DNA of 64,000 nt from Anaerolineales bacterium (GTDB lineage Bacteria; Chloroflexota; Anaerolineae; Aggregatilineales; J027). Made by a program: the position numbers and the translations under genes. How positions within the stretch are numbered: position 1 is the first letter of the stretch; each line of letters opens with the position of its first letter. Below are positions 3,001 to 21,843 of the stretch, piece after piece. Under the pieces are notes generated by a model that was not told the origin of the DNA, searched no databases, and saw only the letters and a list, made by a program, of their open reading frames with translations. The stretch spans positions 1,337,306-1,401,305 of the forward strand of contig JACKCI010000001.1 of assembly GCA_020634155.1 (NCBI GenBank), in the 5' to 3' direction.

Positions 3001-4190
3001 TTGAAGGCTTGATTGACCCGTTGAGGGTACTGAAATTCTTGAAACAGTGTAGCCCACGCAAGGCGGGCCTCGGTTGAAGGCTTGATTGACCCGTTGAGGG
3101 TACTGAAATAACAGGTCAACAACCAGCACCACCAACCGACGCAAGTTGAAGGCTTGATTGACCCGTTGAGGGTACTGAAATTACGTTTGCCATGCTCCTA
3201 GATGATGTTGCCGAGGGTTGAAGGCTTGATTGACCCGTTGAGGGTACTGAAATGTTAGTTCTTGCTCTTTATTAGCCGCCTCAATAATGTTGAAGGCTTG
3301 ATTGACCCGTTGAGGGTACTGAAATTTTTGGGTGCTAAAAGATGGTAAGCGCTCGATTATGTTGAAGGCTTGATTGACCCGTTGAGGGTACTGAAATCTA
3401 TACCTTCGATAGTAACGCCACTGCAGCAGCGCGTTGAAGGCTTGATTGACCCGTTGAGGGTACTGAAATTGCACTGCCGTAGGGTAGTACACAGTATCCA
3501 GATTGTTGAAGGCTTGATTGACCCGTTGAGGGTACTGAAATAGACATGACCATAGGCTATGAGCCTGTCATAATTCAGTTGAAGGCTTGATTGACCCGTT
3601 GAGGGTACTGAAATACTTCAGTTAAGTCGTTGTCGTTATTGCTGACAGTTGAAGGCTTGATTGACCCGTTGAGGGTACTGAAATGCCGTCGCAATGGTTA
3701 GGCGCGTGCTGAAGAAATCGTTGAAGGCTTGATTGACCCGTTGAGGGTACTGAAATTCGCAAATGCGAGGGTCATTGACCGTTCCGTCGTTGTTGAAGGC
3801 TTGATTGACCCGTTGAGGGTACTGAAATAATACACCCGGCTATGAGGCGGGGTTCTGGGCGGGGTTGAAGGCTTGATTGACCCGTTGAGGGTACTGAAAT
3901 ACTGTTCACAGATGACCGGGAACAGGGCATAGTCGGGTTGAAGGCTTGATTGACCCGTTGAGGGTACTGAAATTTTGCAGAGGGATTCACCAAACAGCAA
4001 CGGCGGGGGTTGAAGGCTTGATTGACCCGTTGAGGGTACTGAAATCACGCGCTAGGGCGGGGGGAGATAATCAAAAGTGGGGTTGAAGGCTTGATTGACC
4101 CGTTGAGGGTACTGAAATATTGACATTGTGGTATGAGTCGGGAAATGCGTTTAGTTGAAGGCTTGATTGACCCGTTGAGGGTACTGAAAT
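39..4190 (+). repeat. CRISPR repeat-allele block A: 58 consecutive repeats with T at repeat position 11
   Basis: Manual enumeration of repeat starts (39, 111, 185 ... 4082, 4154). All copies read GTTGAAGGCTTGATTG... Confidence 0.9.
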
Positions 4191-4225
4191 AGAACCCCGC
4201 CGACAGCGCTATCAGCACTGAGGAT

Positions 4226-6814: not shown

Positions 6815-7549
6815 ATGGGTGAACATACTGAGTCGTGGTTTGAAGAAAAACTGGTTGTTGATGACGCCACCCTTGCCAACATTGAAAAGTCACTAGCATC
6901 TACCCCTATTGCAAAAACAATTACCGATACCCAGCGGCTTGTCCGGGGAATTGTGCGTGTTGATCGACCGCGCTGGCGCAAACTTTCCCCCGACGGGCAC
7001 CAGTTCTTGACCGCTGGTACTGCCGCTGATTATTATCTGGTGCGCTTAGGCTTCCAATTTGATTTTCCACCAGAAGCCGAAGTCTATAACCCGCGTTTCG
7101 TCTTTGCACGGTGTGAAGCAGCAATTTGGCCCGAACATGACACCCAGCCAGCACCCGTCATTTACGACCTCTATCCCCAAAACCTGACAGATGGCAACAA
7201 GCCAATGCAAGTGTCGCTCAAATTTGCGCCTAAGATTACCGTTGCGCCCACCATAGAGGTAGCCGGGCCGGAAGCTGGGGTAGCATGGGAGCAAGGCATT
7301 GTCGAACCTTCGTGTACTGGATTTCCGGGTGAACATGAACAACGCCCTTATTGGACACTCCGCCCCAAAAGCAAGTCGTTGATCGGGTTGCGTCATTTTT
7401 GGATGGTGATTGAAGCACCGCAAACTTGCACAGGTATTCGGCTAAAGGTGCAGGCGCGGGCCGACATAGAGTCGAAGTTATTTGGACTTATCTCGATGAA
7501 GCCAAGTGAGCCGGAATGGGCATCACGGCGTAGTATTGTGATTTCTTGA
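6815..7549 (+). CDS. Hypothetical 244-aa protein, first gene of the target-1 operon
   Basis: Clean ORF on the same strand, ending 15 nt before the target-1 start, so co-transcription is likely. The ORFs overlapping it on the opposite strand (for example 6921-7154 and 7046-7423) look like antisense artefacts. I recognise no catalytic or binding motif and no signal peptide or TM segment. Confidence 0.6.
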   Translation: MGEHTESWFEEKLVVDDATLANIEKSLASTPIAKTITDTQRLVRGIVRVDRPRWRKLSPDGHQFLTAGTAADYYLVRLGFQFDFPPEAEVYNPRFVFARCEAAIWPEHDTQPAPVIYDLYPQNLTDGNKPMQVSLKFAPKITVAPTIEVAGPEAGVAWEQGIVEPSCTGFPGEHEQRPYWTLRPKSKSLIGLRHFWMVIEAPQTCTGIRLKVQARADIESKLFGLISMKPSEPEWASRRSIVIS

Positions 7550-7564
7550 GAGGACAAACGATTT

Positions 7565-10500
7565 ATGCCCGAAGATAAGGTGAAGATTCCGCCAGATGTG
7601 CGGACGAGTATTGACGACCCAGAACGGTTAGCCGCCATACTCAAGCTCTCCACGCGGCTAAACCAGATTCATATGCAGCGTGCGATTCATGAGGGCAAAT
7701 CCGGTGCGGGTGTTTATTTAGTGCAGCTTTACTTTGCCCGTACCCAAGATCGAGAACGTGGACTTGAGGGCTATGCCTATCTCAAGGTGGATACGGCTGA
7801 CATAATCAAGACTGAGCTAGGCAAACATGAATCCGTTCGTCGGGGTGCTATGGAGCCATTCGTACCCGAAATTATCGAGGACTTGCACGAGCCACCCAAT
7901 GGGAGACCGCCTCAAGCCGCCTTGTTCTACGCACCAGCGGGCAAGACGACCAAATCCGCCAATTCTTTCGCACAATTGGTGAAAAATGGCGAGGTAAGCA
8001 ACAGCGATGTGCAAAGCATTGTTCAGACATTGAGCAGCGCACTCACGGGTTGGAATCCGCCGGACACCTGCTACAAAGAGCGCATACCCATGACAGCACG
8101 GGAATGGTTCCTACACCTGCTCAACTGCGGTAGCGATTCGGGTATGCGCCTAAGCGATATTCAGCGCTTAGATGTCTGCCCCACTATCGACAAGCCCCTG
8201 ATGCGCTTTCGAGAGTTGGGATGGGAGCTACCCAACCCGCGAGCCTATGCGCTAAACACTGACTTGTGGCGGTCGGCAACGCTACATGGCCCAACGGGCA
8301 ACATTCATGGCGATTTACATGGCGGCAATATCATCTGTCGTACCGATAGCGTTGGCTCCTTGCAACTCATCGACTTTGCACGCCACCAGCGCGACAAAGC
8401 GATTTTCTATGACTTGGCCTATTTGGAACTCGACACCATTTTGCATGTGATGCGCGGTGCAGATTGGGATGAATGGCGGCAATTGTTGGAACACCTCGCC
8501 CCACCTGTCAGCCATGATAGGCCCGTGCCAGCGACCGTGCTGCTCGAAAAAGAGCCGCCCAAGGTGCTGGCTGATCGGGCATGGCACTTCGTTCAGCCTG
8601 TGCGCGAGGTCGCACAGACCTACCTTAATGCCTGTACCACCCCTGATCTCAAGACCGAATTTGCCCAGCAATGGTGGCTCGCCGCCGCCGCAGTGGGCTT
8701 GGTATTCGCACAACGCAGCAGCTTCGCCAATCACCCCGAACAAATGCAGGCCTATCTCTATGCGGCAGTCTGCCTTGAGCGGGCCTTGACTGCCTGTCAG
8801 ATTGACCTCCCTATTCAGACCGACCCTGCCCCATGTTCATTAAACGCTACCGCCAGCACATCAGCCCCTACCGTTAAACTACACCCCCTCATCACCGATT
8901 ATGGACGTGATTTAGCCGCAGCCCTGCAAGAGTATGGCGATTTTTATGTAGACATGAGTGGTGAACAAAGCCCCACTATCCTCAATCCGGAAACGCCCAC
9001 CTCGAGACGCTTTGACCATATCCCACGCCCACACGCCCACCGCATCAAGGTCACAGCAGGGTTGGAAATGAAAGATAACCCCAGCGAAGGGGCCGCCAGC
9101 AGCAAGCCGATTGCCAATGTGCGCGATGCCTTGCGCCAAGCAGGACGGATTGTGCTGTTGGGAGAGCCGGGCAGCGGCAAGACCACCACCCTCAATCGTT
9201 TGGCCTTGGATTATGCCCACAGTCTAGAGACCAACCCCAACGGCTTGATTCCCGTGGTGGTGCCATTAAGCAACTATCGGGGGAGCAGCATCGAGGACTT
9301 CCATGCCTATGTGCAGCAGTGCCTCGCAACGCCCAACTTGGCTGCTATCATTGACCGCAGCCGCCTGCTGGTGCTGTGCGACGCGCTCAACGAGATGCCG
9401 CGCCAAGACCCCCGCACCCTCACCTCATTGCAGCAAGCCCTGCCCGCCTACCCCCATGTGATGGTCTCCTGCCGTGAAAAAGACTTTAACAACAACGACC
9501 TAGACGGCGCAGGCCGCCTCGAAGTGGTGGACATTAAGCCCCTGACCCCACCCCAGATGAAAGCCATCATCGACCAATACCTCTATCGTGATGCTACCGA
9601 TGGCGAATGGCACGGGTTAGCACCCGCAACCGCCCACGACTTATGGGAACATGAGTTGCTCGGAAACGACCTGTTGTTGGCAGCATGGACTGAAATGGCT
9701 GACAACGATGCAGCAGCGGCTTTTTGGCGCAACGAAGACCCGCCCGAACCCCTGTTACGCGACAAGGATAGATACGGTGGCAATTGGTGGCGAGATTTGG
9801 ACAAGCGCGACGAGATGCGGCGGGCGATGCTTGGCGACAAGAAGGGCTTGATGCTGCTGTGTCGCAACCCCTATATGCTCAGTACCTTGGTGATTGGCCT
9901 ATATGTGGAGACCGGGCGCATCCCCAACAATCGCGGCGCGTTGTTTAACGATTTTGTGGATGCCTTGATTACCCGCGAGATTGAAAACGCGCAGAAGCGC
10001 CAAGAGCCTTGGCCGCCCCAAACCGACCAGCGCCTTATCGCAGCCCTTAGCAACCTTGCCGAGGCCATGCAACTGAAGCGTAACGTGACCAGCTTGCCCA
10101 AAACCGAGGCCATGCCGTTCTTGGGCGATGCGTTGTGGCCCCTAGCTGTGCAGTGCAGCATTCTACAAGACCTCAGCGATCGGGTGCGCTTCAGCCACCA
10201 ACTGCTCCAAGAGTATTTCGCCAGCCGCAAGATGGGCGAAGACATGGACAATGCGGTTCCAGCCACCAAGTATTGGGCGGCTGACCGTTGGTGGGAACGG
10301 GTGGGGGCCGAGCAAACCGCGCTAATTTTGGCGGGGGTGCGGGCGGCAGGCGACCGTCAAGGCTTGGTCGAGGTCGTCCAATGGATCGCCACAGCCCAGC
10401 CCGAATTGGCCCTCGATTGTGTCATCGAAGTCGATGGCGAACCGCCCACCCTTGACCTTGGGTTGCTGGACATCCTAGCAGCAGCAGCCCGCGCCAAGCA

Positions 10501-11470
10501 AAACGAACCCCATCCACACGGGCGGGCAGCGGCCTATCGTGTGTTAGGACGCATTGGGGCCGACCAGCGGCGCGGCATCGGGGTGGGGGCCGATGGCTTG
10601 CCAGAGATAGATTGGGTGGAGATACCCGCAGGCAAGTTCACCTATGGCAGCGATAAGGCCAAAGACCCACAAGCCTATAGCGATGAGACACCCCAACGCA
10701 CGCTCCATCTGGAGACCTTCCACATGAGCCGCTACCCCATCACCTATGCTCAATATCAGGTTTTTGTGGAGGCGGCTGACGGCTTCAGTGACCCGCGCTG
10801 GTGGCAGGGGTTGGCTAAACGAGAAACCTCAGTCGGCGAACAAGCCTTCAAGGTTGCCAACCATCCACGAGAGGGCGTGAGTTGGTACGATGCGATGGCC
10901 TTCTGTCGGTGGTGGAGTTGGCGCTTGACGGTCGTCCATCGGGGCGGGTCACAGACCGCGCCCCTACCACCCAACGGTGATTTACCAACTCTGGCAGGGG
11001 TTGACTGGATGAACCCGCTGACATGGCGGGTGCGCCTGCCCACCGAATTTGAGTGGGAGAAGGCGGCCCGCGGGACGGATGGGCGCGTCTATCCATGGGG
11101 CGAGGACTATATCAGCGGCTATGCCAACATTAATGAAACAGGGGGTGGGGTTGGGCCATACTATCTGCGGCAAACAAGTGCAGTGGGCATGTACCCGCAC
11201 CGCGCCCCTGACCAGTCGCCCTATGGGGTAGCGGACTTGAGTGGCAACGTCTGGGAGTGGTGCCTGACCGAGTACGATGAACCCAGCAAAGACATAGATA
11301 TTACTAAGAGTTCGCCCCGTGTGGTGCGTGGCGGCTCGTGGCTCAGCGACCAAGACGATGCGCGGGCCGCCGTCCGCTACTTCGACGACCCGAACTACCG
11401 CGGCAGCGGCAGGGGGTTTCGGGTGGTGGCGTCTGCCCCTATTCTTGGTGCTCTGGTCTCTGGGGGGTGA
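7565..11470 (+). CDS. DGR target protein 1 (1301 aa): APH/kinase-like N-domain + STAND/NACHT-like P-loop NTPase + C-terminal FGE-sulfatase (C-type-lectin fold) domain carrying VR1
   Basis: RBS GAGAGGA lies about 9 nt upstream. The kinase-like region has GKSGAGVYLV, IHGDLHGGNII (HxDxxxxN catalytic-loop type) and LIDFARH. Walker A is VLLGEPGSGKTT and the Walker B-like motif is LLVLCDALNEM. FGE-sulfatase motifs are HPREGVSWYDAMAFCRW, RLPTEFEWEKAARG, GNVWEWC and RGGSW...RGFRVV. The last roughly 40 codons are VR1. Confidence 0.9.
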   Translation: MPEDKVKIPPDVRTSIDDPERLAAILKLSTRLNQIHMQRAIHEGKSGAGVYLVQLYFARTQDRERGLEGYAYLKVDTADIIKTELGKHESVRRGAMEPFVPEIIEDLHEPPNGRPPQAALFYAPAGKTTKSANSFAQLVKNGEVSNSDVQSIVQTLSSALTGWNPPDTCYKERIPMTAREWFLHLLNCGSDSGMRLSDIQRLDVCPTIDKPLMRFRELGWELPNPRAYALNTDLWRSATLHGPTGNIHGDLHGGNIICRTDSVGSLQLIDFARHQRDKAIFYDLAYLELDTILHVMRGADWDEWRQLLEHLAPPVSHDRPVPATVLLEKEPPKVLADRAWHFVQPVREVAQTYLNACTTPDLKTEFAQQWWLAAAAVGLVFAQRSSFANHPEQMQAYLYAAVCLERALTACQIDLPIQTDPAPCSLNATASTSAPTVKLHPLITDYGRDLAAALQEYGDFYVDMSGEQSPTILNPETPTSRRFDHIPRPHAHRIKVTAGLEMKDNPSEGAASSKPIANVRDALRQAGRIVLLGEPGSGKTTTLNRLALDYAHSLETNPNGLIPVVVPLSNYRGSSIEDFHAYVQQCLATPNLAAIIDRSRLLVLCDALNEMPRQDPRTLTSLQQALPAYPHVMVSCREKDFNNNDLDGAGRLEVVDIKPLTPPQMKAIIDQYLYRDATDGEWHGLAPATAHDLWEHELLGNDLLLAAWTEMADNDAAAAFWRNEDPPEPLLRDKDRYGGNWWRDLDKRDEMRRAMLGDKKGLMLLCRNPYMLSTLVIGLYVETGRIPNNRGALFNDFVDALITREIENAQKRQEPWPPQTDQRLIAALSNLAEAMQLKRNVTSLPKTEAMPFLGDALWPLAVQCSILQDLSDRVRFSHQLLQEYFASRKMGEDMDNAVPATKYWAADRWWERVGAEQTALILAGVRAAGDRQGLVEVVQWIATAQPELALDCVIEVDGEPPTLDLGLLDILAAAARAKQNEPHPHGRAAAYRVLGRIGADQRRGIGVGADGLPEIDWVEIPAGKFTYGSDKAKDPQAYSDETPQRTLHLETFHMSRYPITYAQYQVFVEAADGFSDPRWWQGLAKRETSVGEQAFKVANHPREGVSWYDAMAFCRWWSWRLTVVHRGGSQTAPLPPNGDLPTLAGVDWMNPLTWRVRLPTEFEWEKAARGTDGRVYPWGEDYISGYANINETGGGVGPYYLRQTSAVGMYPHRAPDQSPYGVADLSGNVWEWCLTEYDEPSKDIDITKSSPRVVRGGSWLSDQDDARAAVRYFDDPNYRGSGRGFRVVASAPILGALVSGG
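11313..11438 (+). repeat. DGR variable repeat VR1 (3' end of target 1)
   Basis: This 126-nt sequence is collinear with the reverse complement of 13127-13252. By manual alignment there are 16 mismatches, all at TR adenines. The 5' 29 nt and the 3' 28 nt (AGGGGGTTTCGGGTGGTGGCGTCTGCCC) are identical. Confidence 0.92.
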
Positions 11471-11480
11471 GCGAAGCGAA

Positions 11481-11501
11481 CCCCAAAAAAATTTTTTGGG
11501 G
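11481..11501. terminator. Perfect palindrome CCCCAAAAAA-A-TTTTTTGGGG between convergent target 1 and RT; candidate bidirectional terminator and/or DGR target-recognition hairpin
   Basis: Read directly from the sequence. It lies 42 nt after the VR1 end and 10 nt after the target-1 stop. A related A/T palindrome occurs in the same relative position after VR2. Confidence 0.5.
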
Positions 11502-11509
11502 GAGGGGTC

Positions 11510-12601
11510 CTAGGATTTTTTAGGCGGGCGGATGCGGAGGTTGCCCAATACATGCTCGCGCAGGCCCCACGTATCCGCATAGCGCACATGGTTAATCCAA
11601 CCTTGGACGCTGGCATCAAGTTCAGCAAAGCTGATACGCCCCTCGGCATAATCGCTGATACGGTCGGCAATGCGCTGCTGAAAATGCACCAGATTGCGGC
11701 GCTTAAGCAAGCGGTGGTGGGGATAGACCACAAAGCCCAGCCATGGAATGCCATGCTCAACGGGGATGACTTGGGCCTCAGTCTCATGGATGGTCAGGCG
11801 CAGATGGGCAAGGCGCTCGGTGAGGCGCTGCTTCCAACGATTCAGTTGGCGCTTGCTGTTGCTAAAGAGGGCGAAATCGTCCACATAGCGCAGGTAGGCG
11901 GAGCAGCCCAACTCGCGCACCACGAACCAATCCAAGGGGTTCATATACACATTCGACCAGAACTGCGAGGTCAGGTTGCCGATGGGTAGCCCTCGCGGAC
12001 GGTTGACCGCGAACAGGTCATCGCCCGCAAAATAGACCATGCGGTACTCGTCATCCAAGACACCCACCCCACTGGCGAGAATGCGCTCAATCAACCACAG
12101 GATGCGTGGGTCATCCAGCGCTTGGCCTAGGGTATCACGTAGCACGGCATGGTCAAGTGAGGGGAAGTGCTTGACAATATCGGCTCGCAGCACATAGGCA
12201 TAGGCGCGGCTAAAGGCTTGTAGGCGGTCAATGGCGCGGTGGGTGCCTTTGCCGATGCGGTTGGCATAGCTATCGGGGATGAAGCGCTGGTCGAAATAGG
12301 GTTCGATGATGTTGCACAGGGCATGATGCACCACACGGTCACGGAAGGGGGCCGCGCTGATTTTGCGCTGCTTGGGTTCATTGATATAGAAATGGGTATA
12401 GGGGCCGGGTTGGTAGGTCTGGGTGTGGAGGTCGTGCTGCAAAGCCGCTAACCGATCTGCAACCCGATGCTCGAAGTGGCTGGCGGGGTGTTGACCGCGC
12501 TTGCCCTTGGCGGCCCGTCGAAAGGCCAACCAGAGATTATCCCATGTAGTGATGGAGTCAAAAGATGGTGATTTTGAGTCGGACGTATGATTTGTTGGCA
12601 T
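11510..12601 (-). CDS. DGR-type reverse transcriptase
   Basis: Carries YVDDFALF (the YxDD catalytic motif) and [18 protein letters not shown] (the [I/L]GxxxSQ motif characteristic of DGR RTs). The N-terminus [17 protein letters not shown] is typical of the family. The ORF track starts at GTG 12655; I prefer ATG 12601 ([11 protein letters not shown]...). Either start overlaps the avd 5' end on the opposite strand. Confidence 0.92.
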
Positions 12602-12894
12602 GGGTGCTACCCCGCACCGAAAAATTCCCGCGTTTGTATCGCAACACCATAACACGGCGCTTGCTGGATGCCTTGCTCGATTTTCAGGAACTGCTATATG
12701 AGGCCAATGCCGCCCAAGGCTCCAAACGGCTGACGTATCTGCGGCGGGCCGATGGTCATTTGGACAAGCTACGGCTCTATCTGCGCTTGGCCTTCGACTT
12801 GCAGTGGCTCACTAGCGGGCAATATGAGCATGTCAGCCGCATGGTCGAGGAGGTTGGGCGCTTGTTGGGTGGGTGGATTCGAGAGAGTAGCTAG
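12565..12894 (+). CDS. avd: Avd-like accessory variability determinant (four-helix-bundle / 23S rRNA-IVS protein family), 109 aa
   Basis: GGAG RBS about 7 nt upstream. The sequence is [33 protein letters not shown]...[40 protein letters not shown]. It matches the family pattern as I remember it: basic, all-helical and about 110 aa. It is encoded on the strand opposite to RT and TR. Confidence 0.85.
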
Positions 12895-12896
12895 GC

Positions 12897-12934
12897 GGGT
12901 ACAGTGGGAGCGAATCCAGACTGTACCCAGTTTT
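12897..12934 (+). terminator. Candidate rho-independent terminator of avd
   Basis: GGGTACAGT (12897-12905) pairs with ACTGTACCC (12920-12928) across a 14-nt loop. It is followed by AGTTTTAT and begins 3 nt after the avd stop. Confidence 0.5.
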
Positions 12935-13126
12935 ATGTATGTGCCTGACGGCAACCCAAGGCCACCGTGCAGACCAGACACACCTGCGCTATTCTTCATC
13001 CTTCGCCGCATCCAGCAAACCGTAGTCGGCTGGCCCTATTGGAAGCGGTGACCCTATGGTGGGGGGCCGCTCGCACTGCCCATCGCCCGTAGGCAACAGG
13101 CCGCCTGAGAAGGCGCAGACGAACAT

Positions 13127-13252
13127 GGGCAGACGCCACCACCCGAAACCCCCTGTTGTTGTTGCGGTTGTTCGGGTTGTTGTTGTTGCGGACGGCGGCC
13201 CGCGCATTGTCTTGGTTGTTGTTCCACGAGCCGCCACGCACCACACGGGGCG
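13127..13252 (-). repeat. DGR template repeat (TR)
   Basis: Non-coding copy of the VR sequence. The minus strand reads ...TGG AAC AAC AAC CAA GAC AAT GCG CGG GCC GCC GTC CGC AAC AAC AAC AAC CCG AAC AAC CGC AAC AAC AAC AGG GGG... It has 30 adenines, 12 of its codons being AAC. Track ORF 12996-13244 (MVRGGSWNNNQDNARAAVRNNNNPNNRNNNRGFRVV) is just its translation. Confidence 0.92.
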
Positions 13253-13322
13253 TCTGGTCTCAGGGTGCCTGACGAATGGGTACCCACCCGTAAAAACCAG
13301 TATACCGCAAGACCCCATTTTT

Positions 13323-13338
13323 CAAAAAAAATTTTTTG
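13323..13338. promoter_or_regulatory. A/T palindrome CAAAAAAAATTTTTTG downstream of VR2 (counterpart of 11481-11501)
   Basis: Lies 12 nt after the target-2 stop on the minus strand. It is preceded by the same TGAGCGAAGCGA sequence found after target 1. Confidence 0.45.
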
Positions 13339-13350
13339 CGCTCGCTTCGC

Positions 13351-16300
13351 TCACGCCCCAGAGACCAGAGCACCAGAGGGTATAGGGGCAGACGCCACCA
13401 CCCGAAACCCCCTGAAGGTGAGGCGGTAGCTCGGGACGAGGTAGTGGCGGACGGCGGCCCGCGCATCGTCCCGGGCGCTGAGCCACGAGCCGCCACGCAC
13501 CACACGGGGCGAACTATTAGTAATATCTATGTCTTTATTGGGTTCACGGTACTCGGTCAGACACCATTCCCAGACGTTGCCGCTCAAGTCCGCTACCCCA
13601 TAGGGCGACTGGTCAGGGGCGCGGTGCGGGTACATGCCCACTGCACTCGTTTGACCGAGAGTGAATGGCCCCACTTTGGTACCACCAAAACGTGCTGTTT
13701 CGTCAATGTTGGCATAGCCGCTGATATACTCATTGCCCCACGGATAGACACGCCCATCCGTCCCGCGGGCCGCCTTCTCCCACTCAAACTCGGTGGGCAG
13801 GCGCACCAGCCATGTCAGCGGGTTCATCCAGTCAACCCCTGCCAGAGTTGGTAAATCACCGTTGGGTGGTAGGGGCGCGGTCTGTGACCCGCCCCGATGG
13901 ACGACCGTCAAGCGCCAACTCCACCATCGACAGAAGGCCATCGCGTCGTACCAACTCACGCGCTCGCGGGGGTGGTTGGCAACCTTGAAGGCTTGTTCGC
14001 CGACTTGGGATTGGTTACGGCGTCGGTCTTCATCATCCGCCAACCCCTGCCACCAGCGCGGGTCACTGAAGCCGTCAGCCGCCTCCACAAAGACCTGAAA
14101 TTGAGCATAGGTGATGGGGTAGCGGCTCATGTGGAAGGTTGAGAGTGGCTCATGGGTGCGGTCTTGATACGTCCATTTCCCGTCGTCGGGTATCTCCACC
14201 CAATCTATCTCTGGCAAGCCATCGGCCCCCACCCCGATGCCGCGTCGCTGGTCGGCCCCCACAAGCCCCAAGATGCGGTAGGCCGCCGCCCGTCCGTATG
14301 GGTGGGGTTCGGCGCTGTGGTGTCGTGCGCCTTCAATCAGCGCCTGCCGACCTGCTTCGGTCAAATCAGCCAGCGTCTTGCCCTCCCCATTGCGTAACAG
14401 CACACTCAGGGCCAGTTCGGGGGTGACGGGAGCCAGCCATGTCAAAACGCGGATGGGGTCGCGCACCAACTCGCCCAGAATCACGATGGTCTCACGCCAT
14501 GGCCCGGCCTCCCACCAATCCGGTGTAAAGAAAGGCGCAGGCGATTGCCCACCCTCTAGGGCGACCAACAACTCAGCCGTGGCGAAGTATTCTTGAAAGA
14601 GTTGGTGGCTAAATTGAAGGGTTGTCCCCAACTGGATGAGGTTGGCAGCTTCGGCGTCGCGCAAGAGGGCCTCAGCGCTGGCAGCATCTAGGCTGCTATC
14701 CACAGCTTGGGCCGCTTGCAGGGCCGCCGCACGGGTAATTTCGGTGCGTTGTTCGGTGCGTTGCACAGCAGCAGCAATCGCGGAAAGGACGGTCTCGATA
14801 CGGGCTTTGTGTTCAGGGGGCCATGGTTGCTGGCGTTTTTCTGCCAACTCCGCTTCATGATTCAGCAGCTTGGTGACAAAGCCGTTGAACAAACCCGCCC
14901 GATTGCCGGGCAAGGCCTGTTCGGGGGGCAAGCCCTTGTCGATAGCCCAGCGGAACAAGCCAATCACCAATTGCCCCAAGGTGAAGGGATTACGACACGC
15001 CAACAGCAGACGCCGCTTATCCTGATGGACACGCTGTCGGGCGTTGCGGTGCTGTCCATAGGCTTGGGGGTAGTCAATGCGCCATGCCTCGTTGGACTGG
15101 AGGCGTTGGGCAATTGCTGCGCGTTCATCTTCGGGAAAATAAAGCACCTTCACCGTATCGGGAATGGGGCAACTCGGCTGCCAGAAGTCGTCTTCGTGGT
15201 CTACAAAATAGTCCCATGCCGCGATTAGGTCGGCGCTCCCGTGCATCAATTGCCACAACTGCTCGCCCTGTTCGGGCAGGCGTTGGGTAATGATGCGATA
15301 GATTTGGGCCGGGGTCAGGTCACGCAATTGCAGCCGATCAAGGTGCGGGATGCTGCTCAACTCGTTGGTGTAGTCACGCACCCGACACGACACCACAAAG
15401 CGCTCGCAGCCTTGGATAAAGGCCAGCACTTCGGGCATCAGCTTGCGCTTGTCTGGCCCCGTGCGCGGCATCTCGTTCAGGGCGTCAAAGAGCCACACCA
15501 GCTTCAAATCGGCACGATAGGGTTGCAAGGCCCCTAGCTGCCCCTCGGCATATTCGCTGAAGCTGGTCTTCCCATCAAAGCCTGAAAGCTTCACAAAGAC
15601 GGGCAAGGGTGGGGCTTCCCCATCGGCCTTGGTAGCCTTGTCATCGGCATAGTCCAGCGTCAGGCGTTGCAGCAGGGTCGTCTTGCCGCTGCCCGGCTCA
15701 CCCAACAGCACCACCCGCTTCAACTTCATGAGGCGTTCCCGCACCTTGGGCACCCGCTCGCCTGCCTCCTGCGCTTTCTCGCTCATGGCGGGGATGGTGG
15801 CGGCAAATAAACTGCCGAATAAGTCCTCCAACTCATCGGGGGATGGCTCTAGTGCCCGCGTTGGGTGGTAGGGTTCGGGGCGTTGCTCCCCGCGCAGGTC
15901 AATGGTGGTCTTCAATTCATCGTGCATTTCCCGTAACAACCCCTCCCGATAGGCAGCAATGTCATCAGGACGCAGGGGGGCGCTGCCCGCTTGCCACTGC
16001 ACTTGATAAGGCAGCGTTTGGCTCGGCTCCAAGCCAATCTGTTGGAGTAGGTGGCGTAGCGCACTCGCCGCATACAGGAGCGTGACCTTGCGCTGTTGAG
16101 GGGTGGTGTTGTGGCTGCGGCGGGTAGCGATGGTTCCAGCCGCCACGACTGCCAACCAGAAGGCATTTTCGTACTGCTCGGCAATGCTCTCATCAAATGG
16201 TTGTAAGAACTGGGCGAGATACTGTCGGATAGGCTGAATGAGTTGCCACACCGAGGCGGGCTTGATGCCTTGAGGCAGGCCCGGTGGCACCACCCCTCGC

Positions 16301-17217
16301 GCCAGAAATTGCGTCAAGTGTACCCAATCATTCCAATCGGCCTCGGTTTCGGCCCCCAACGTCCGCAACATCACATCCAATTCGAGATAAGCCAAATCGA
16401 ACAACGGGAAGCCGTTTTCATCAAACTGCTGGAGGTCAATCAACCAAGGTGGGGTGTCGGCGGGCTGGTTGAGTGCATCGAGCTTGCACATCAGGTTATC
16501 AGCATGAAAATCGCCGTGCATCGGCCCCCGCGGGATGGTGAGCTTCTTGTCATGCCACAACGCGGCATTCAAAGCATAAGCAATTGGGTTGGGAAACGAG
16601 GCGGATAAATCGTGTCCGGGCCAAAAGCTGACGTTATCTTGCACATTAGGTGGCAAGCCCATCTCGCGGGCGCGGCTATTGATGTCGCGGGTGCGTTTTT
16701 TACCCCCGACGTTAATCATGGCCTGTAGTGCTTCATATATGGGTATTGACGCACGGCCTTGGCGTATATCGCGGGCATCATGCCAGCACTTCAGTACAGG
16801 GTCAAATGAATAAGTAATCTGCTTGGTACAGGAGCTAATCAGTTGATGCTCAATCAGCTTTGCCAACGAGGTGGCACTTTGGGTGCGGTGCTGCGCGGGT
16901 TGATAGAGCAACAGCGCATACTCCACCTCATCCTGCACAACCGGCCCAATCAATCCGCCAATAATCCCTGCTAAATACGACTTGATACACTCGTCAGTTG
17001 CGCGTTGTTGATTCCTCAGCGCCTTCTCCATCGCGTCTTTGGTGTCAATTTTAGCGAAGGCCAAGCCATCATATTGCCGTGAGGTCGAGCCTTGAATGTC
17101 TACCAGCACAACTTGTGCGCCCGAAAGCCCGCCCGCCATACGCTCCATGGGCGTAATCTTGCCATCTTGATAAGCCTCGAATAACTGTTGGACATAGCGC
17201 GGATACACCTCGCTCAT
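13351..17217 (-). CDS. DGR target protein 2 (1288 aa): same kinase-like + STAND/NACHT-like NTPase + FGE-sulfatase/CLec architecture, carrying VR2
   Basis: RBS GGGAGGA lies upstream. Motifs are MHGDFHADNLMC, WLIDLQQF, Walker A VVLLGEPGSGKTT and Walker B-like LVWLFDALNEM. The C-terminal roughly 300 aa are nearly identical to target 1 (for example VSWYDAMAFCRWWSWRLTVVHRGGSQTAPLPPNGDLPTLAGVDWMNPLTW). The N-terminal two-thirds are much more divergent. Confidence 0.9.
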   Translation of the reverse strand: MSEVYPRYVQQLFEAYQDGKITPMERMAGGLSGAQVVLVDIQGSTSRQYDGLAFAKIDTKDAMEKALRNQQRATDECIKSYLAGIIGGLIGPVVQDEVEYALLLYQPAQHRTQSATSLAKLIEHQLISSCTKQITYSFDPVLKCWHDARDIRQGRASIPIYEALQAMINVGGKKRTRDINSRAREMGLPPNVQDNVSFWPGHDLSASFPNPIAYALNAALWHDKKLTIPRGPMHGDFHADNLMCKLDALNQPADTPPWLIDLQQFDENGFPLFDLAYLELDVMLRTLGAETEADWNDWVHLTQFLARGVVPPGLPQGIKPASVWQLIQPIRQYLAQFLQPFDESIAEQYENAFWLAVVAAGTIATRRSHNTTPQQRKVTLLYAASALRHLLQQIGLEPSQTLPYQVQWQAGSAPLRPDDIAAYREGLLREMHDELKTTIDLRGEQRPEPYHPTRALEPSPDELEDLFGSLFAATIPAMSEKAQEAGERVPKVRERLMKLKRVVLLGEPGSGKTTLLQRLTLDYADDKATKADGEAPPLPVFVKLSGFDGKTSFSEYAEGQLGALQPYRADLKLVWLFDALNEMPRTGPDKRKLMPEVLAFIQGCERFVVSCRVRDYTNELSSIPHLDRLQLRDLTPAQIYRIITQRLPEQGEQLWQLMHGSADLIAAWDYFVDHEDDFWQPSCPIPDTVKVLYFPEDERAAIAQRLQSNEAWRIDYPQAYGQHRNARQRVHQDKRRLLLACRNPFTLGQLVIGLFRWAIDKGLPPEQALPGNRAGLFNGFVTKLLNHEAELAEKRQQPWPPEHKARIETVLSAIAAAVQRTEQRTEITRAAALQAAQAVDSSLDAASAEALLRDAEAANLIQLGTTLQFSHQLFQEYFATAELLVALEGGQSPAPFFTPDWWEAGPWRETIVILGELVRDPIRVLTWLAPVTPELALSVLLRNGEGKTLADLTEAGRQALIEGARHHSAEPHPYGRAAAYRILGLVGADQRRGIGVGADGLPEIDWVEIPDDGKWTYQDRTHEPLSTFHMSRYPITYAQFQVFVEAADGFSDPRWWQGLADDEDRRRNQSQVGEQAFKVANHPRERVSWYDAMAFCRWWSWRLTVVHRGGSQTAPLPPNGDLPTLAGVDWMNPLTWLVRLPTEFEWEKAARGTDGRVYPWGNEYISGYANIDETARFGGTKVGPFTLGQTSAVGMYPHRAPDQSPYGVADLSGNVWEWCLTEYREPNKDIDITNSSPRVVRGGSWLSARDDARAAVRHYLVPSYRLTFRGFRVVASAPIPSGALVSGA
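13386..13511 (-). repeat. DGR variable repeat VR2 (3' end of target 2)
   Basis: This 126-nt sequence is collinear with TR on the same strand. By manual alignment there are 21 mismatches, all at TR adenines, and the flanking blocks are invariant. Confidence 0.92.
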
Positions 17218-17237: not shown

Positions 17238-19115
17238 TTACTCGTTCACCAGTAGAACTATTTTATCCATTTGTGGCGTGCTAAAACGGGGTTGTTGTTC
17301 TTTGCCAACACTTAAAGCCCGCCGCTTGACTTCCTCGCGCAGCAATCTAAACACATCCAACACCTCGACCTCACCGGGATGGCTCATCGCCTCAATCAGC
17401 ACCTCAGTAAAGAGGCTATTGTGGTGTCCACCGAGGATATAGGATGACTGCGTTTCGGTAGAGGAGGCAATCAACGCCCGCCCACTGCCTGCTAACAACT
17501 GGGGGTTGATTGCTTTAGGAATCAAGTCGGCTTGGAAAACATCTTTGGTCAAGACCGCCCCACCTGCATGGCAACAATCAAGGAAAACGACCATACGTTG
17601 AGCGCTCACATCTTGTAGCCATGTGTTGAACATGCTCATATTAAGGGCGGTACTCAGAAAATCGTGCGGATTATACTCATGTGGGATAAAGAAGTAGTCA
17701 TCTGTTGTAGTAGCCATCCCATGTCCAGAATAGTACACAATCGCGGTGGCATTGGCATCAACTCTGACCTTCTCGCGTAGCCAGTCAAACGCTGCTTGAA
17801 TGGTAGGAATGGCGGCCTGTTCATCAGTCAACACTTTGACCTGTTCAGACAAATAACCTGCGCGTTTTGTGAGAAACTCCTTGACCGCCAAGGCATCATT
17901 GGCCGTGATAGGCAATGAATATTTGGGGTTCTTGGTCTCACCCACCCCAATTACCAAGGCATACCCGTGTTCAAATGGTTGCACTGGGCGTATTCCGTGA
18001 ACAATGGCGATTTGGGCAAGGGGTTGCGTAGGAGCGAGAACCTCAATCTGGGTGCTGTCGGTAGTTGGTAAGTTGAATGCTTCTGCTACTTGGGCAAAAG
18101 CCAATGTTCCATAGACCAATGCCGCCTTGCGATACAGGTCTGATGCTTGTGGGTCGGCAAATGCGCGTAATGCAGCGATAGTACCACACATCCAATAGGC
18201 GGTTTCAATCCGTTCACCCAGTGTAGAGTGCATGGCGTCCATATAGGCTTTAATGCTTTGACGCAAGGGCAGAATTATTTGTAGCGCATGAGATGCAATG
18301 AAACCCGCAATATCGTGGGGATTGGGTGTGATGGCAGTACAAATATGAGAGCATAGCCCAACCCACTCCTCCCATGAGGCACGCTCCAACATGAACTGCT
18401 GAAGCACTGATAGTTCCAACATTGTCCAGTCCAAAAGGATAGGGCCTTGTTCATCAAGTGTCCGCACATCCATGAGGACGGGTTCATTCTTGGCAATGTA
18501 CACGTGGCTGACATCCAATTGTCCGTGCATGATTCCCATCGGCATCAGCAGTGATTGATTGGTTGACCAAAGCGCATCGTTCATGACCCATGCCACTGGA
18601 TTCCTATAAACTCGATTTCCTATCGAGATTGTGTCATGAATTGTGGTTGCGGATGAGAAAGGTGTGTATTGACGTAGCCAATCGCGTAGATTGAAGGCCT
18701 CGCGCTTCAAATCCCGCACATCATTCCAATTTTTGAGATAACCTGCCAACTTCTCCAACAAGGCTACCATCTCATTGATTCGCGGACTGGCGTCTTGAAG
18801 GTACGTCACCAAGGGGCGGATATGGTTAATATGCGGCACATCCACTAAACACCCAACGGTACCAGCAGTGTCCACCAATTCAGCTACTGAAGTGGGAAAC
18901 ATCTCTAGTTTAAGCCGTTCCACACGTCTTTGTTGGCTAGTGATTGCGTCGGGGTCGCCAGTGGCGTAACGCTGCAAGAGATACATACCTTGCACGTCGC
19001 GTTGTCGTATGGCGTTGCTATCGACACGATAGAGTTTTAACGAGGGAATAGCAGAGGGTACTTCGTCATAAAGCACTAATGGTGGCGAAAAAAGATTCAA
19101 CAGCTTATAAACCAT
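17238..19115 (-). CDS. Caspase-fold (peptidase C14) protein with an N-terminal degenerate kinase-like domain homologous to the N-termini of the DGR targets (625 aa)
   Basis: The C-terminal roughly 260 aa carry ALVIGV, IVYYSGHG (catalytic His) and VVFLDCCHAGG (catalytic Cys). The N-terminal roughly 330 aa align by eye with both targets at three blocks. These are NPVAWVMNDALW vs NPIAYALNAALW / NPRAYALNTDLW, HGQLDVSHVYI vs HGDFHADNLMC / HGDLHGGNIIC, and LLDWTMLELSVL vs LFDLAYLELDVML / FYDLAYLELDTIL. The gene ends 20 nt before the target-2 start. Confidence 0.85.
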   Translation of the reverse strand: MVYKLLNLFSPPLVLYDEVPSAIPSLKLYRVDSNAIRQRDVQGMYLLQRYATGDPDAITSQQRRVERLKLEMFPTSVAELVDTAGTVGCLVDVPHINHIRPLVTYLQDASPRINEMVALLEKLAGYLKNWNDVRDLKREAFNLRDWLRQYTPFSSATTIHDTISIGNRVYRNPVAWVMNDALWSTNQSLLMPMGIMHGQLDVSHVYIAKNEPVLMDVRTLDEQGPILLDWTMLELSVLQQFMLERASWEEWVGLCSHICTAITPNPHDIAGFIASHALQIILPLRQSIKAYMDAMHSTLGERIETAYWMCGTIAALRAFADPQASDLYRKAALVYGTLAFAQVAEAFNLPTTDSTQIEVLAPTQPLAQIAIVHGIRPVQPFEHGYALVIGVGETKNPKYSLPITANDALAVKEFLTKRAGYLSEQVKVLTDEQAAIPTIQAAFDWLREKVRVDANATAIVYYSGHGMATTTDDYFFIPHEYNPHDFLSTALNMSMFNTWLQDVSAQRMVVFLDCCHAGGAVLTKDVFQADLIPKAINPQLLAGSGRALIASSTETQSSYILGGHHNSLFTEVLIEAMSHPGEVEVLDVFRLLREEVKRRALSVGKEQQPRFSTPQMDKIVLLVNE

Positions 19116-20084
19116 CTCTATAGCTCCACAAGAATCAATAACAAGCAGTATCTATATTGCAGCGATCAACATTCGACTGTAAATGACTATCAGCAAATCT
19201 AGTTTGTTGGCTGACTAAAGCAACCTCAAACTTTGTTAGGGGTGATACCCCAATAATAAATGAATATGTTTGTGAGTATAGATAGCTTTCGGGAAAAAGC
19301 CAAAATGGTGGCTGTGGTAAGTTACTGTTCATCCCAGAGTCTGGGGCAAATCATTCCTTACTATATTGTCCGCGCTTGCTTCTCCTCTGATCTGTTTTAC
19401 GTTACCCAGAGACATCTTTGCACTCCACTATAGCAGGACATTTCCTGATAGGTTAGGTGCCTTCATAGACGCAAAGACCTCGCAATCTAATCAAGTTTGC
19501 GAGGTTGATGAATCAGTAAAGGGTTTTGCTATTGACGCATCTGGTTATTGCAGGTCACCTACCAGTTACGATTGCACTTCAATCGTGTTAGCTGTCTCCG
19601 CTACCTTCGGACTACATTCGGTACCTCTACCCCCACATACAGCCTCGAAAGCACCTTTTCAACAGCTTCTACTAGAGAAAAGCGTGGGATGGGTTCGAAC
19701 CTCGTATGGGGCATTAGTATAAATTATTTCATACTACAAAATCTCACCCCACTCAATACATTTTCACCATAAAATCTAAATCACCTCACTATGAGCATAG
19801 TATAAGCGTAGGGAAGTCGTATACTTATAGCATTCATTTCACAACTTACCATCGAAAAATCCAAGCATGATGTCTCAACCACTTTTTTACCAATTTTCGA
19901 CACTTTAGAATTCACATCTAGCGAACCACCAACAGATTATTGCCTTGGATATGCAGTCACGGATTAGAGCAAAGTAGGAGCAGCGCATCGTCCGTCTAAA
20001 CCATAAACTTACCCCCGCGCCCAACGCCCAGCACTCCACTGGTCAGCTACAGTTAGTTGCAATCTGCTGACTTTGGGTCAGAGT

Positions 20085-21843
20085 TCAGAGCCTAAGTTGA
20101 CCACTATACAACCGTGCATACATCCCATCTCGAGCAAGTAGCTCCTTGTGTGTTCCTTGTTCTGATATGCCATCCTCCGATAGCATTAGAATTCGATCCG
20201 CATTCTGAACAGTTGATAAACGATGTGCAATCACCAGTGTTGTTCGGTTATCCGCAAGTTGTTCCATCGCAAGCTGAACGGCACGTTCACTCTCGTTATC
20301 TAACGAACTGGTGGCTTCATCAAATATGATAATTGGCGGATCCTTGAGGAACAGACGGGCAATGCTCAGACGCTGCTTCTGCCCACCTGATAACTTCACA
20401 CCACGTTGACCAATATCTGTATTGTATCCATTGGGAAGGGCCATAATAAAGCCATGTGCATTCGCTTTGACCGCCGAATCTATAATCTCCGCTTGGTTTG
20501 CGCTCGGCTTGCCATAATTGATATTCTCATAGACTGTACCTGAAAACAGATATGTGTCCTGATGCACGATACCGATATTTCGGCGTAGTGACCGCAAACT
20601 GATGTCACATATGTTATGACCATCAATCAGAATATCACCCTCGGTCACCTCGTAAAAACGCGGAAGCAAGGACAAGAGTGTTGTTTTCCCGATACCCGAT
20701 ACCCCGACCAGTGCAACATATTCCCCCATCCGGATTTCCAGTGAGATGTTCTTCACCACATAATCAAGATGCTCACGATATTTAAAACTGACATTCCGAA
20801 ATTCAACATGCCCCTGAGCCTGTTTCAGTTCAATAGCATCGGGTGAATCTTGGATTTCCGGCTCAATTTCCATGATTTCCATAAACCGATTAAATCCGGT
20901 GACACCTTCCTGATAGAGTCGGGCAAGATTCGCAAACTTTGAAATTGGGTCAATCAGAATTGCGATGAATAACAGGTAAGTTACCAAATCAGTTAAATCC
21001 AATGAAGCATGCAGAATCGCAATACCACCGAAGATAATTACACCCATCGTCAGCACCTGTGTAAACGCCATCATCCCTTCATAGAAGAAAGCTTCACTTC
21101 GATATATATCGCGTCTGGTAGTAACAAACCGTGCGTTTTCATAGGCAAATTTCTGCTTTTCCACTGTTTCATTGGTGAACGATTGAACAACTTTGATACC
21201 AGTCAGCATATCTTCCACCTGTGCATTGATGTCACCGATTCGCGTCCGGCTTTCAGTCAACGCACTGTTAAGGCGTCGATTGTAATGCAACGCATAGAAA
21301 GCCATAAATGGCATCAGGAGAAAAATCGCCATTGTCAGCGGGATGTTGATGCTCAACAGGATGGTAAATGCGCCAAGCAACTTCAACAGCGCAATCAACG
21401 ATTCTTCAGGGCCATGATGTGCCAACTCGCTAATTGCAAACAAGTCGTTGGTGATACGAGATAACAAGTGGCCTGTTCGCTGTTCGTCATAGAAGCTAAA
21501 TGACAACTTTTGATAATGGTCGAATAGGTCACGTCGCATATCACTTTCCATATGTGTACCCATCATATGCCCCTGATAATCCACAAATGTATTGCATACG
21601 ATCTGGATAAGAATCAAACCAACCATCACCAACCCCATTAGAATGATCTGATTGAGAGCATCCGGCGCGTTATTTTGCAAGATGTTCTGGGTGATATATC
21701 TGGCACAAAGGGGAAGAACAAGAGCAGTTGCTGAAACAATAACAGCGCAAACGAGATCAACAACCAGTAAACCCCAATAAGGCTGGTAATACGAAAAGAA
21801 TTTCTTGCTCCGCGAAGGCAAGTGGTCACGCGAGTTCGACATG
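20085..21843 (-). CDS. ABC exporter half-transporter (TMD-NBD fusion, MsbA/MdlB-like)
   Basis: Six predicted N-terminal TM helices. Walker A GVSGIGKTT, ABC signature LSGGQKQR, Walker B IIIFDEATSSLD and H-loop LVIAHRLST. I prefer ATG 21843 (MSNSRDHLPS...) over the track's TTG at 21866. The gene is visibly AT-richer (about 40-43% GC by eye) than its neighbours. Confidence 0.9.

Follow-up and report, generated by a model that had tools for sequence, protein, structure and literature searches.

What might explain why the same 126-nucleotide (nt) sequence closes two genes that point towards each other, and stands a third time, on its own, in the DNA between them? The locus lies in a stretch of 64,000 nt from an uncultured Anaerolineales bacterium of the Chloroflexota (contig JACKCI010000001.1 of assembly GCA_020634155.1, positions 1,337,306 to 1,401,305 of the forward strand; this whole stretch is the window in what follows). 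A preliminary description made from the sequence had read it as a diversity-generating retroelement (DGR), in which one template repeat (TR) supplies adenine-mutagenised copies to two variable repeats (VRs). We conclude, with a probability of roughly 85%, that the locus is a complete chromosomal DGR that diversifies a pair of sensors resembling NOD-like receptors (NLRs), associated with a protease, by the mechanism proposed below. The repeats and the genes that carry them are as follows.

7565-11470, + strand: target gene 1, 1301 amino acids (aa), with a TCAD9 domain, a NACHT/STAND NTPase and a C-terminal C-type lectin (CLec) domain of the formylglycine-generating enzyme (FGE) type
11313-11438, + strand: VR1, the variable repeat of target 1, 126 nt, inverted with respect to TR
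13127-13252, − strand: TR, the template repeat, 126 nt, with 30 adenines and 12 AAC codons
13386-13511, − strand: VR2, the variable repeat of target 2, in TR orientation and 259 nt upstream of TR (start to start)
13351-17217, − strand: target gene 2, 1288 aa, with a TCAD9 domain, a STAND NTPase and an FGE-type C-type lectin domain

The three copies were recovered at these positions by ungapped comparison and, independently, by a repeat finder; the window holds no fourth copy, even with 12 substitutions permitted at non-adenine positions. Formal ungapped comparison reproduces the mismatch counts that had been obtained by hand, 16 between TR and VR1 and 21 between TR and VR2, and all 37 fall on TR adenines (16/16 and 21/21; hypergeometric p = 2e-12 for VR1 and 3e-17 for VR2). 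The other 96 positions are the same in TR, VR1 and VR2 without exception. TR is composed of 30 A, 42 C, 39 G and 15 T; the earlier count of 24 adenines in 12 AAC codons is reproduced, the remaining six sitting in CAA, GAC, AAT and AGG codons, and the peptides encoded by the three copies are those read before. Stop codons are unreachable by mutation from any TR codon, and the number of possible protein variants per VR, computed from the TR codons, is about 1.2e17. Both VRs make up the last codons of their targets, as had been described, VR1 ending 32 nt before the stop codon of the gene at 7565-11470 and VR2 35 nt before that of the gene at 13351-17217. TR had been called non-coding, and there is indeed no evidence of a gene there; mechanical open reading frames (ORFs) do overlap it, one of them in the VR frame, as is expected because TR is a stop-free copy of coding sequence.

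The homology between TR and the VRs sets in exactly at the first base and ends after GTCTGCCC, beyond which TR continues with ATGTTCG and the VRs with CTATTCT and CTATACC. Its last 28 nt form a GC-rich block (AGGGGGTTTCGGGTGGTGGCGTCTGCCC) that is invariant across TR, VR1 and VR2, as noted at the outset. The boundary had been likened to an initiation of mutagenic homing (IMH) site: the break in homology is real, but a block that is identical in donor and acceptors cannot by itself discriminate between them.

Could these repeats instead be ordinary duplicated coding sequence, held together by gene conversion between inverted paralogues, with an adenine bias that is coincidental or due to some other mutational process? 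There is homology of the right kind, as the last ~940 nt of the two targets, which encode the C-terminal lectin modules, form an inverted repeat of 88-98% DNA identity flanking the cassette (10504-11498 and 13323-14311), far beyond the VRs, and the CLec module has clearly undergone conversion or recent duplication. Such a process is nevertheless confronted with 37 of 37 differences falling on 30 adenines among 126 positions, with a third copy that is non-coding, rich in AAC and embedded in a conserved structured RNA beside a DGR reverse transcriptase (RT) and Avd, and with the same pattern in dozens of related loci. We regard it as effectively refuted. Mutagenic retrohoming, the signature of which had been claimed, is what the adenine-only substitutions, the DGR-like RT, Avd and the location of the VRs in lectin folds all agree upon.

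Two genes stand between VR1 and TR.

11510-12601, − strand: DGR reverse transcriptase, 363 aa from an ATG at 12601 (the mechanical ORF reaches a GTG at 12655), Pfam RVT_1
12565-12894, + strand: avd accessory gene, 109 aa, antisense to RT and TR

The RTs of DGRs carry [I/L]GxxxSQ where those of group II introns and retrons have QGxxxSP, together with the YxDD catalytic motif. The two motifs singled out previously are in place in this enzyme, IGNLTSQ at residue 207 and YVDD at residue 239. Its best solved relative in a sequence search of the PDB is the BPP-1 DGR RT (bRT, 8ub7; E = 2.4e-48, 168 bits), followed by group II intron RTs with at most 72 bits (E = 3e-19) and by chains deposited as retron-type RTs with at most 65 bits (E = 4e-17), so that BPP-1 RT leads the next-best RT class by 96 bits. 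With the NCBIfam models the enzyme scores 141.7 bits against group_II_RT_mat (cut-off 300) and 38 bits against the retron model (cut-off 235), both far under the family cut-offs. Neither an intron RNA nor an msr/msd RNA is matched in Rfam, in the window at gathering thresholds or in 11400-13420 at E ≤ 1. The RT scores under the family cut-offs and the missing Rfam match speak against a group II intron or retron, and on its sequence the RT is assigned to the DGR clade.

The Avd-like gene that had been noticed is recognized as such by NCBIfam DivGenRetAVD (100.9 bits, cut-off 80) and Pfam bAvd (1.7e-19, 70.7 bits, cut-off 40), and its product matches the solved BPP-1 Avd (Bbp7/Avd) in the PDB at E = 1e-5. 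The starts of avd (+) and RT (−) overlap head-to-head by 37 nt (12565-12601), and similar overlaps or near-abutments are found throughout the clade. Each of the two promoters must therefore lie inside the coding sequence of the other gene or further off. The RT may be translated from a read-through TR transcript, which would be antisense to the entire avd gene.

Is this arrangement peculiar to the present genome? From left to right the locus consists of target 1 reading rightwards into VR1, the RT leftwards, avd rightwards, TR leftwards, and VR2 with target 2 leftwards. Genome collections yielded 254 relatives of the RT, of which 80 (L001-L080; at most 74% identity) were kept. Those that reach 63-74% identity belong to Anaerolineae and further Chloroflexota, to Accumulibacter, Contendobacter and Acidobacteriota. 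In all 78 kept relatives with enough upstream DNA avd is divergent from the RT, and many of these loci also adjoin TR/VR pairs. A scan for adenine-biased repeat pairs found the order VR, TR, (avd), RT and inverted VR in at least 11 related loci (L015, L018, L027, L033, L037, L054, L066, L071, L072, L074 and L077) of Chloroflexota, Acidobacteriota and Proteobacteria; each of the 11 begins with a VR placed 250-300 nt upstream of TR, after which come TR, antisense avd and the RT, and has its inverted VR close behind the RT. Several shorter contigs among the relatives show part of the same arrangement. An inverted second target and an antisense avd are thus the norm for this RT clade. The preliminary description was correct that there are two targets, one of them inverted with respect to TR, but the layout is not unusual: it is normal for the clade and already published by Wu et al. 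2018 (PMC5758913) and Doré et al. 2024 (PMC10907252). The orientation of TR relative to the RT varies within the clade, L002 and L004 having TR on the avd strand directly after avd, and in L007, L016, L019 and L035 TR lies 3-5 kb from the RT, behind a target gene.

How, then, would TR be read and copied? The DNA on both sides of TR is conserved among the relatives, and the following elements can be discerned in it, all on the strand of TR. The promoter and leader are proposed on conservation.

13253-13325, − strand: putative promoter and leader of the TR RNA
13325-13320, − strand: −35-like TTGAAA, a leader element
13304-13299, − strand: putative −10 box TATACT, conserved as TAnnnT in an alignment of 34 loci
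13291-13272, − strand: 5' hairpin, conserved in the same 34-locus alignment
13267-13261 with 12986-12979, − strand: long-range duplex enclosing TR (helix 1), with double-sided changes in 6 of 8 pairs
12897-13126, − strand: 3' domain of the DGR RNA, the counterpart of the BPP-1 spacer (Sp)
13123-13109, − strand: pyrimidine tract, starting 4 nt after TR and pairing with a purine-rich tract at 13004-12992
13033-13012, − strand: stem-loop of 9 bp with a UACG tetraloop of the UNCG type, Avd-binding-like
12974-12943, − strand: second stem-loop, followed by an A-rich run at 12942-12929
12928-12897, − strand: terminal hairpin, with a T-run following on the + strand; it may equally be the avd terminator

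Upstream of TR, the alignment of relatives shows −10-like boxes of the forms TATACT, TATGAT and TAAACT, then a hairpin and a CAGGC..CCTGG motif. Two alignments were used for the RNA, one of 34 sequences from the 3' end of TR to the avd stop codon and one of 33 sequences covering the whole unit. RNAalifold applied to the first finds three local helices, in which 19 of 25 pairs have compensatory changes. When a hand-written structure is laid over the 33 sequences, 88.8% of the cells can pair, compared with 74% in shuffles and 38-50% when the partners are slid by 1-3 columns; double-sided changes are found in 38 of 45 pairs, and in 500 shuffles not one of the observed measures was attained. Compensatory changes occur in all helices over the 33 loci, and every covarying helix can form in the sequence of the window. 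A structured DGR RNA of about 400 nt, supported by covariation, surrounds TR. None of the families in Rfam 15 covers this TR-flanking RNA. A prediction of leader/trailer duplexes over the whole region gave long, gappy and uninformative duplexes and was replaced by the column-wise counting of covariation. A terminator scan of 11300-13600 returned terminator-like matches at chance level. The stem-loop after TR and the long-range duplex are both also features of the BPP-1 DGR RNA (Handa et al.), a likeness drawn from the published description of BPP-1 and not from a structural alignment.

In the mechanism that we propose, a promoter with its −10 box at 13304-13299 on the − strand would drive the ~400-nt structured RNA in which TR is embedded, as conservation suggests. 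By analogy with BPP-1, an RT-Avd complex would bind the TR RNA and self-prime from the purine-rich tract just downstream of TR; the priming nucleotide is probably at the 3' end of this tract, near 12992-12990, and priming there would explain why the homology between TR and the VRs ends at 13127. As in the rest of the family, TR would be copied into cDNA with misincorporation opposite the 30 template adenines. The cDNA would then take the place of the 126 homologous nt with which either target gene closes, an outcome that the sequence shows directly, all differences between VRs and TR being at TR adenines and the other positions homogenised to TR. What would mark a VR, and not TR, as the acceptor is a C[T/A]CTG array followed by a palindrome centred on GCGAAGC, a hypothesis that stems from the presence of these elements at both VRs and not at TR. 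Finally, the proteins so diversified would form a hypervariable NLR-like sensor pair coupled to a protease, as the logic of their domains and published proposals indicate.

Since TR and the VRs do not differ in the GC-rich block, what identifies an acceptor must be encoded further downstream, a point that Wu et al. 2018 (PMC5758913) make explicitly for DGRs with identical IMH and IMH*. The candidate signals downstream of the two VRs are these.

11451-11462, + strand: C[T/A]CTG array after VR1, CTCTGGTCTCTG, 2 copies with a spacing of 7
13359-13378, − strand: C[T/A]CTG array after VR2, CTCTGGTGCTCTGGTCTCTG, 3 copies with spacings of 8 and 7
11464-11484, + strand: imperfect palindrome GGGGT-GA-GCGAAGC-GA-ACCCC straddling the stop codon of target 1, a tentative hairpin or cruciform candidate
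13338-13356, − strand: imperfect palindrome GCGTGA-GCGAAGC-GAGCGC straddling the stop codon of target 2, the counterpart of 11464-11484
11481-11501, + strand: perfect palindrome with an A/T core, CCCCAAAAAAATTTTTTGGGG, between the convergent stop codons of target 1 and RT (11470 and 11510)
13338-13322, − strand: A/T palindrome following the palindrome at the target 2 stop codon

For every VR of the clade the 110 nt that follow it were aligned, and motifs were counted in the first 70. The array follows 49 of 49 clade VRs, with a mean of 3.6 motifs per 70 nt (range 1-6), against 0.21 over the same length after TRs and a background of 0.11 on each strand. The spacing in the clade is 7 nt in 64 cases and 8 nt in 31, and the orientation after VRs is always sense, never reverse. 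No C[T/A]CTG occurs in the 70 nt upstream of the clade VRs or after the 43 BPP-1-like viral VRs of a control set, where the canonical GC hairpin, capped by a GRNA loop, comes directly after the VR. In about 0.9 Mb of related loci, arrays of at least 3 copies are almost exclusively beside VR 3' ends, and the only other array in the window is a chance 2-copy match at 20079-20090. The period is not divisible by three, and in the relatives that were read in frame the end of the target ORF falls inside the first repeats or close to them, which places the constraint on nucleic acid and not on protein. We put forward, tentatively and well short of an even chance, that the tandem array is the determinant by which an acceptor VR is told from TR. 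Since the motif goes with the DGR clade in at least three phyla, its reader would probably be the RT-Avd ribonucleoprotein and not a factor of the host.

Other functions for the array were considered and set aside. Pairing with the spacer RNA was suggested by UCUGGUCU, a part of the array that occurs in the spacer-like RNA, but the longest shared words average 7.2 within loci and 6.96 between loci, so that no co-variation is seen. A supply of stop codons in three frames does not fit either, CTCTGG being nearly as common as CTCTGA and every copy in the window being CTCTGG. A host Chi-like site is an unlikely explanation for a motif that goes with the DGR clade from phylum to phylum. A full-text search that left subscription journals mostly outside found nothing in print that connects CTCTG with DGRs, so that the motif can be called unreported only provisionally.

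The palindromes at the two stop codons lie 26-30 nt past the VRs, after the array, and a 53-nt stretch that is 89% complementary between the targets includes both of them and runs past the stop codons. The oligonucleotide d(GCGAAGC) is a classic, extraordinarily stable DNA mini-hairpin. This heptamer is present after both VRs, at 11471-11477 (+) and 13344-13350 (−), and relatives have GCGTAGC or GCGCAGC at the equivalent hairpin tips. Across the clade a VR is followed by the array, then by a GC-rich hairpin, the loop of which is often a GNA triloop or GACT, and then by an A/T run. As for the A/T-cored CCCCAAAAAAATTTTTTGGGG palindrome, its position between two convergent stop codons makes a bidirectional terminator likely.

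Is the element still active, or are its parts complete and homing at an end, with the differences between the VRs as relics? Several results weigh against the mechanism and against present activity. A generic sigma-70 scan of 11300-13600 finds no promoter, the spacer proposed here being 15 nt where the scan allows 16-18 nt. The DNA after the VRs does not fold significantly better than shuffles (z-scores of −0.8 to −1.0), and its palindromes are weak and imperfect beside the strong GC hairpins of BPP-1-like DGRs. Sister sequences are wanting: the 126-nt repeat, with N at the TR adenines, has 0 matches in metagenome and genome collections, and the last 177 aa of target 1 find nothing above 65% identity in a database of 5.8 billion proteins. 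In the 5' third of the VRs (TR positions 30-45; 11342-11357 and 13467-13482), all five co-mutated adenines carry the identical substitution in VR1 and VR2, giving W-L-S...D-D in both.

A recently silenced or fossil DGR would account for some of this, inheritance fitting the identical 5' substitutions better than fresh homing, the hairpins after the VRs being weak, and no sister sequences having been found in the collections searched; degenerate loci, and differing activity among the VRs of one locus, are also reported by Doré et al. (PMC10907252). The identical substitutions may equally reflect shared ancestry by duplication or gene conversion, selection, or a 5' homing junction inside the VR. 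Against silencing stand the intact RT, avd and both targets (all ORFs of the cassette and targets are intact) with their catalytic motifs present, and the RNA, every covarying helix of which can be formed here. In the 3' two-thirds of the VRs, 10 adenines are mutated in both, of which 3 have the same and 7 different substitutions, the rate expected by chance if substitutions are independent and random. The 139 nt upstream of the VRs differ at 9 positions (6.5%) between the targets, and despite this flank divergence the 96 non-adenine VR positions differ at none (Fisher p = 0.012), which fits homing more recently than the divergence of the paralogue flanks. We therefore consider loss of activity improbable and retain a functional DGR as the preferred reading. 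An exact look-up of Avd retrieved two Logan contigs of ~1.3 kb (SRR12358675 and SRR12358676) that are 100% identical to 11957-13252 or 11957-13247; one ends exactly at the end of TR and the other 5 nt short, where contigs are expected to break because TR is a repeat.

What do the diversified genes do? The two targets have a common architecture and a neighbour that shares one of its domains.

17238-19115, − strand: TCAD9-caspase gene, 625 aa, immediately upstream of target 2; its product is predicted to be the effector protease
6815-7549, + strand: 244-aa ORF, 15 nt before the start of target 1, a possible operon partner of uncertain membership in the DGR system

In Pfam, target 1 matches FGE-sulfatase (1.3e-52), TCAD9 (4.4e-16) and NACHT (28.2 bits, cut-off 26.7), and target 2 matches FGE-sulfatase (1.3e-43), TCAD9 (1.6e-15) and NACHT at 25.9 bits, 0.8 bits under the cut-off of 26.7; both have NACHT and nSTAND matches. 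The Walker A motif GEPGSGKTT is at residue 533 of target 1 and residue 506 of target 2. The TCAD9 domains have weak APH matches and a kinase-like HGDxHxxN motif, HGDLHGGN at residue 248 and HGDFHADN at residue 234, respectively. The C-terminal 289 aa of target 1 match FGE-family structures and the Treponema denticola DGR variable protein TvpA (PDB 2y3c, E = 7e-10), and sequence searches detect no solved relative of its N-terminal 1012 aa. In both targets the VR is at the C-terminus of the FGE-type C-type lectin domain, and the diversified residues are predicted to form the ligand-binding face of that domain.

The first ~1000 aa of the targets are only 25-35% identical in protein sequence, as against the nearly identical lectin modules behind them, and none of the 80 related loci has anything that corresponds to the N-terminal TCAD9/NACHT parts. 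Of 13 related loci examined, 11 have only 170-290 nt of inverted homology between their targets, L072 and L051 having longer stretches. This points to a putative shuffling of modules. The protein encoded next to target 2 has Peptidase_C14 (Pfam, 3.7e-23; PADLOC caspase 1.3e-17) in addition to TCAD9, with the catalytic His and Cys intact in SGHG at residue 463 and DCCH at residue 513. BLASTP shows the N-terminal domain of this protein to be a homologue of the TCAD9 domains of both targets, with E = 3e-21 for target 2 and E = 2e-9 for target 1; the protein is likely the effector, which would be recruited through the shared TCAD9 domain. The 244-aa ORF has no Pfam or PADLOC match and no similarity to the caspase protein or target 1, and it is absent from the 80 related loci.

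No PADLOC or NCBIfam model of a characterised defence system matches the targets, and the PADLOC matches are limited to the generic caspase model and a weak candidate-system match on the P-loop of target 2; these results count against an immune-sensor role. In a filamentous bacterium, an active DGR might instead diversify hypervariable receptors that act in signalling, in recognizing kin or self, or in developmental programmed cell death. Besides the lack of a match to characterised defence families, the kinase-like HGDxHxxN motif and weak APH matches of TCAD9 would suit signalling, and the window is rich in two-component regulators. Regulatory roles, under the phrase 'regulatory pathway tuning', were reportedly argued for cyanobacterial DGR targets by Vallota-Eastman and colleagues in 2020, and we count this on the same side. 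On the other side, an 81-repeat CRISPR array abuts the locus, a defence-island context, and the combination of NACHT, caspase and shared adaptor is assigned to conflict systems, on grounds other than experiment, by Kaur et al. 2020 (PMC7159879) and Doré et al. 2024 (PMC10907252). We find receptors of this non-defensive kind rather unlikely, if a good deal easier to credit than a silenced element, and continue to favour sensors of the NLR type coupled to a protease.

The locus belongs to a class that has already been described in detail between 2018 and 2024, as architecture B3 of Wu et al. 2018 and as the two-target STAND-NTPase DGRs of Doré et al. 2024. Doré et al. (PMC10907252) describe a clade 5D of cellular DGRs in multicellular bacteria that diversify STAND-NTPase 'antigen sensors', for example DGR 6 and DGR 3 of Thiohalocapsa PB-PSB1, in which CLec modules have been duplicated onto divergent N-termini and whose hosts include Chloroflexi and Accumulibacter. 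The present locus is like theirs in its two targets, both having a STAND NTPase in the middle and a single C-terminal FGE/CLec domain containing the VR, in a peptidase that shares the adaptor domain, in the CLec modules on divergent N-termini, and in that Chloroflexi and Accumulibacter are also among the relatives of this RT. Unlike in those loci, the shared domain is TCAD9 and not EAD8, and the protease is a caspase and not trypsin-like. The likeness to clade 5D is one of domains and of the taxa of RT relatives.

In the survey of Wu et al. 2018 (PMC5758913), TR-(avd)-RT is architecture B3, 13% of DGRs have two targets, the components can sit on different strands, and IMH does not always differ from IMH*. 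The present locus agrees with B3 in its core order and in having avd reversed. There, B3 is nearly confined to genomes of the candidate phyla radiation, whereas here the arrangement is universal in a large clade of Chloroflexota, Acidobacteriota and Proteobacteria.

In the DGR of Bordetella phage BPP-1, the prototype, the order is mtd-avd-TR-brt. It and the present locus both have an adenine-specific transfer from TR to VR, homologous RT and Avd, a VR at the C-terminus of a C-type lectin fold and a GC-rich 3' end of the repeat. Unlike the present locus, BPP-1 has one target, all parts on the same strand and an IMH that differs from IMH*, and its VR is followed, at a distance of 4 nt, by a strong GC hairpin of 8 bp that has a GRNA loop (Guo 2011). 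Here avd is antisense, two targets are convergent, the GC block is the same in TR and the VRs, and an array stands between the VR and a weak palindrome.

The Pfam name TCAD9, 'ternary complex associated domain 9', is the sole tie of the locus to the MoxR-vWA (VMAP) ternary systems of cyanobacteria and gammaproteobacteria (Kaur et al. 2020, PMC7159879). Those systems are similar in their hypervariable C-terminal FGS/FGE domains, caspase or trypsin effectors, adaptors and a nearby DGR, but the NTPase here is a NACHT-type STAND protein fused to the sensor, and MoxR ATPase, vWA and VMAP are absent from all ORFs tested between 6 and 22 kb of the window. The succession of effector or adaptor, STAND NTPase and C-terminal sensor is also reminiscent of Avs and bacterial NACHT defence proteins. 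In those the sensor consists of TPR-type repeats, whereas here it is a lectin fold diversified by a DGR, and the effector is a separate caspase protein.

As a locus, then, this is one more well-preserved example of a DGR, of modest interest in itself, in a poorly sampled lineage of Chloroflexota and beside a large CRISPR array. It supports the recent proposal that bacteria which form filaments or aggregates hypermutate NLR-like sensors, to which death proteases are coupled. No earlier report seems to exist of the conserved signals in DNA and RNA around the repeats, and the array and the covariation-supported RNA are the parts of most use to specialists. With a GC block that is the same in donor and acceptors, the clade poses a clean question of how a VR is discriminated from TR, to which the array and palindrome found only at VRs offer a candidate answer that can be mutated. 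The RNA model around TR provides a second, phylogenetically distant system in which the priming and termination mechanism of BPP-1 can be tested, and the antisense avd overlapping the start of the RT is a further feature for comparison with BPP-1.

The surroundings of the locus are those of an ordinary chromosome. The remainder of the window encodes two-component systems, sugar ABC transporters, a cytochrome bc complex and an amylase, and a protein of the xanthine dehydrogenase family is 72-74% identical to proteins from metagenome-assembled genomes of Chloroflexi, Anaerolineae and Promineifilaceae, whereas a scan of genomes with peptide patterns from it yielded nothing but a Fictibacillus locus at 28% identity. 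The window has no tRNA genes and no Rfam matches. The G+C content of the DGR core (8000-16000) is 57-60% and that of the flanks and the outer TCAD9/caspase parts 45-52%, which fits acquisition of the cassette plus lectin module from a donor of higher G+C. The CRISPR array is about 1 kb from the DGR/sensor locus.

39-5849, + strand: CRISPR array, 81 copies of a 37-nt repeat, GTTGAAGGCT[T/C]GATTGACCCGTTGAGGGTACTGAAAT, cut by the start of the window

Its spacers are 33-38 nt long, most often 35. Position 11 of the repeat is T in the 58 left-hand repeats and C in the 23 right-hand ones, from 4226 onwards. No cas genes are visible in the window, and the exact repeat was not found in genome representatives. 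A further STAND-type protein of 1004 aa (32319-35333, −), with BTAD, NB-ARC and TPR domains in an SARP/AfsR-like architecture, is unrelated to the DGR targets. An ORF of 946 aa (55203-58043, +) combines several bacterial SH3/GW-type repeats with a C-terminal ABC permease domain (BPD_transp_1), an unusual fusion for a binding-protein-dependent transporter.

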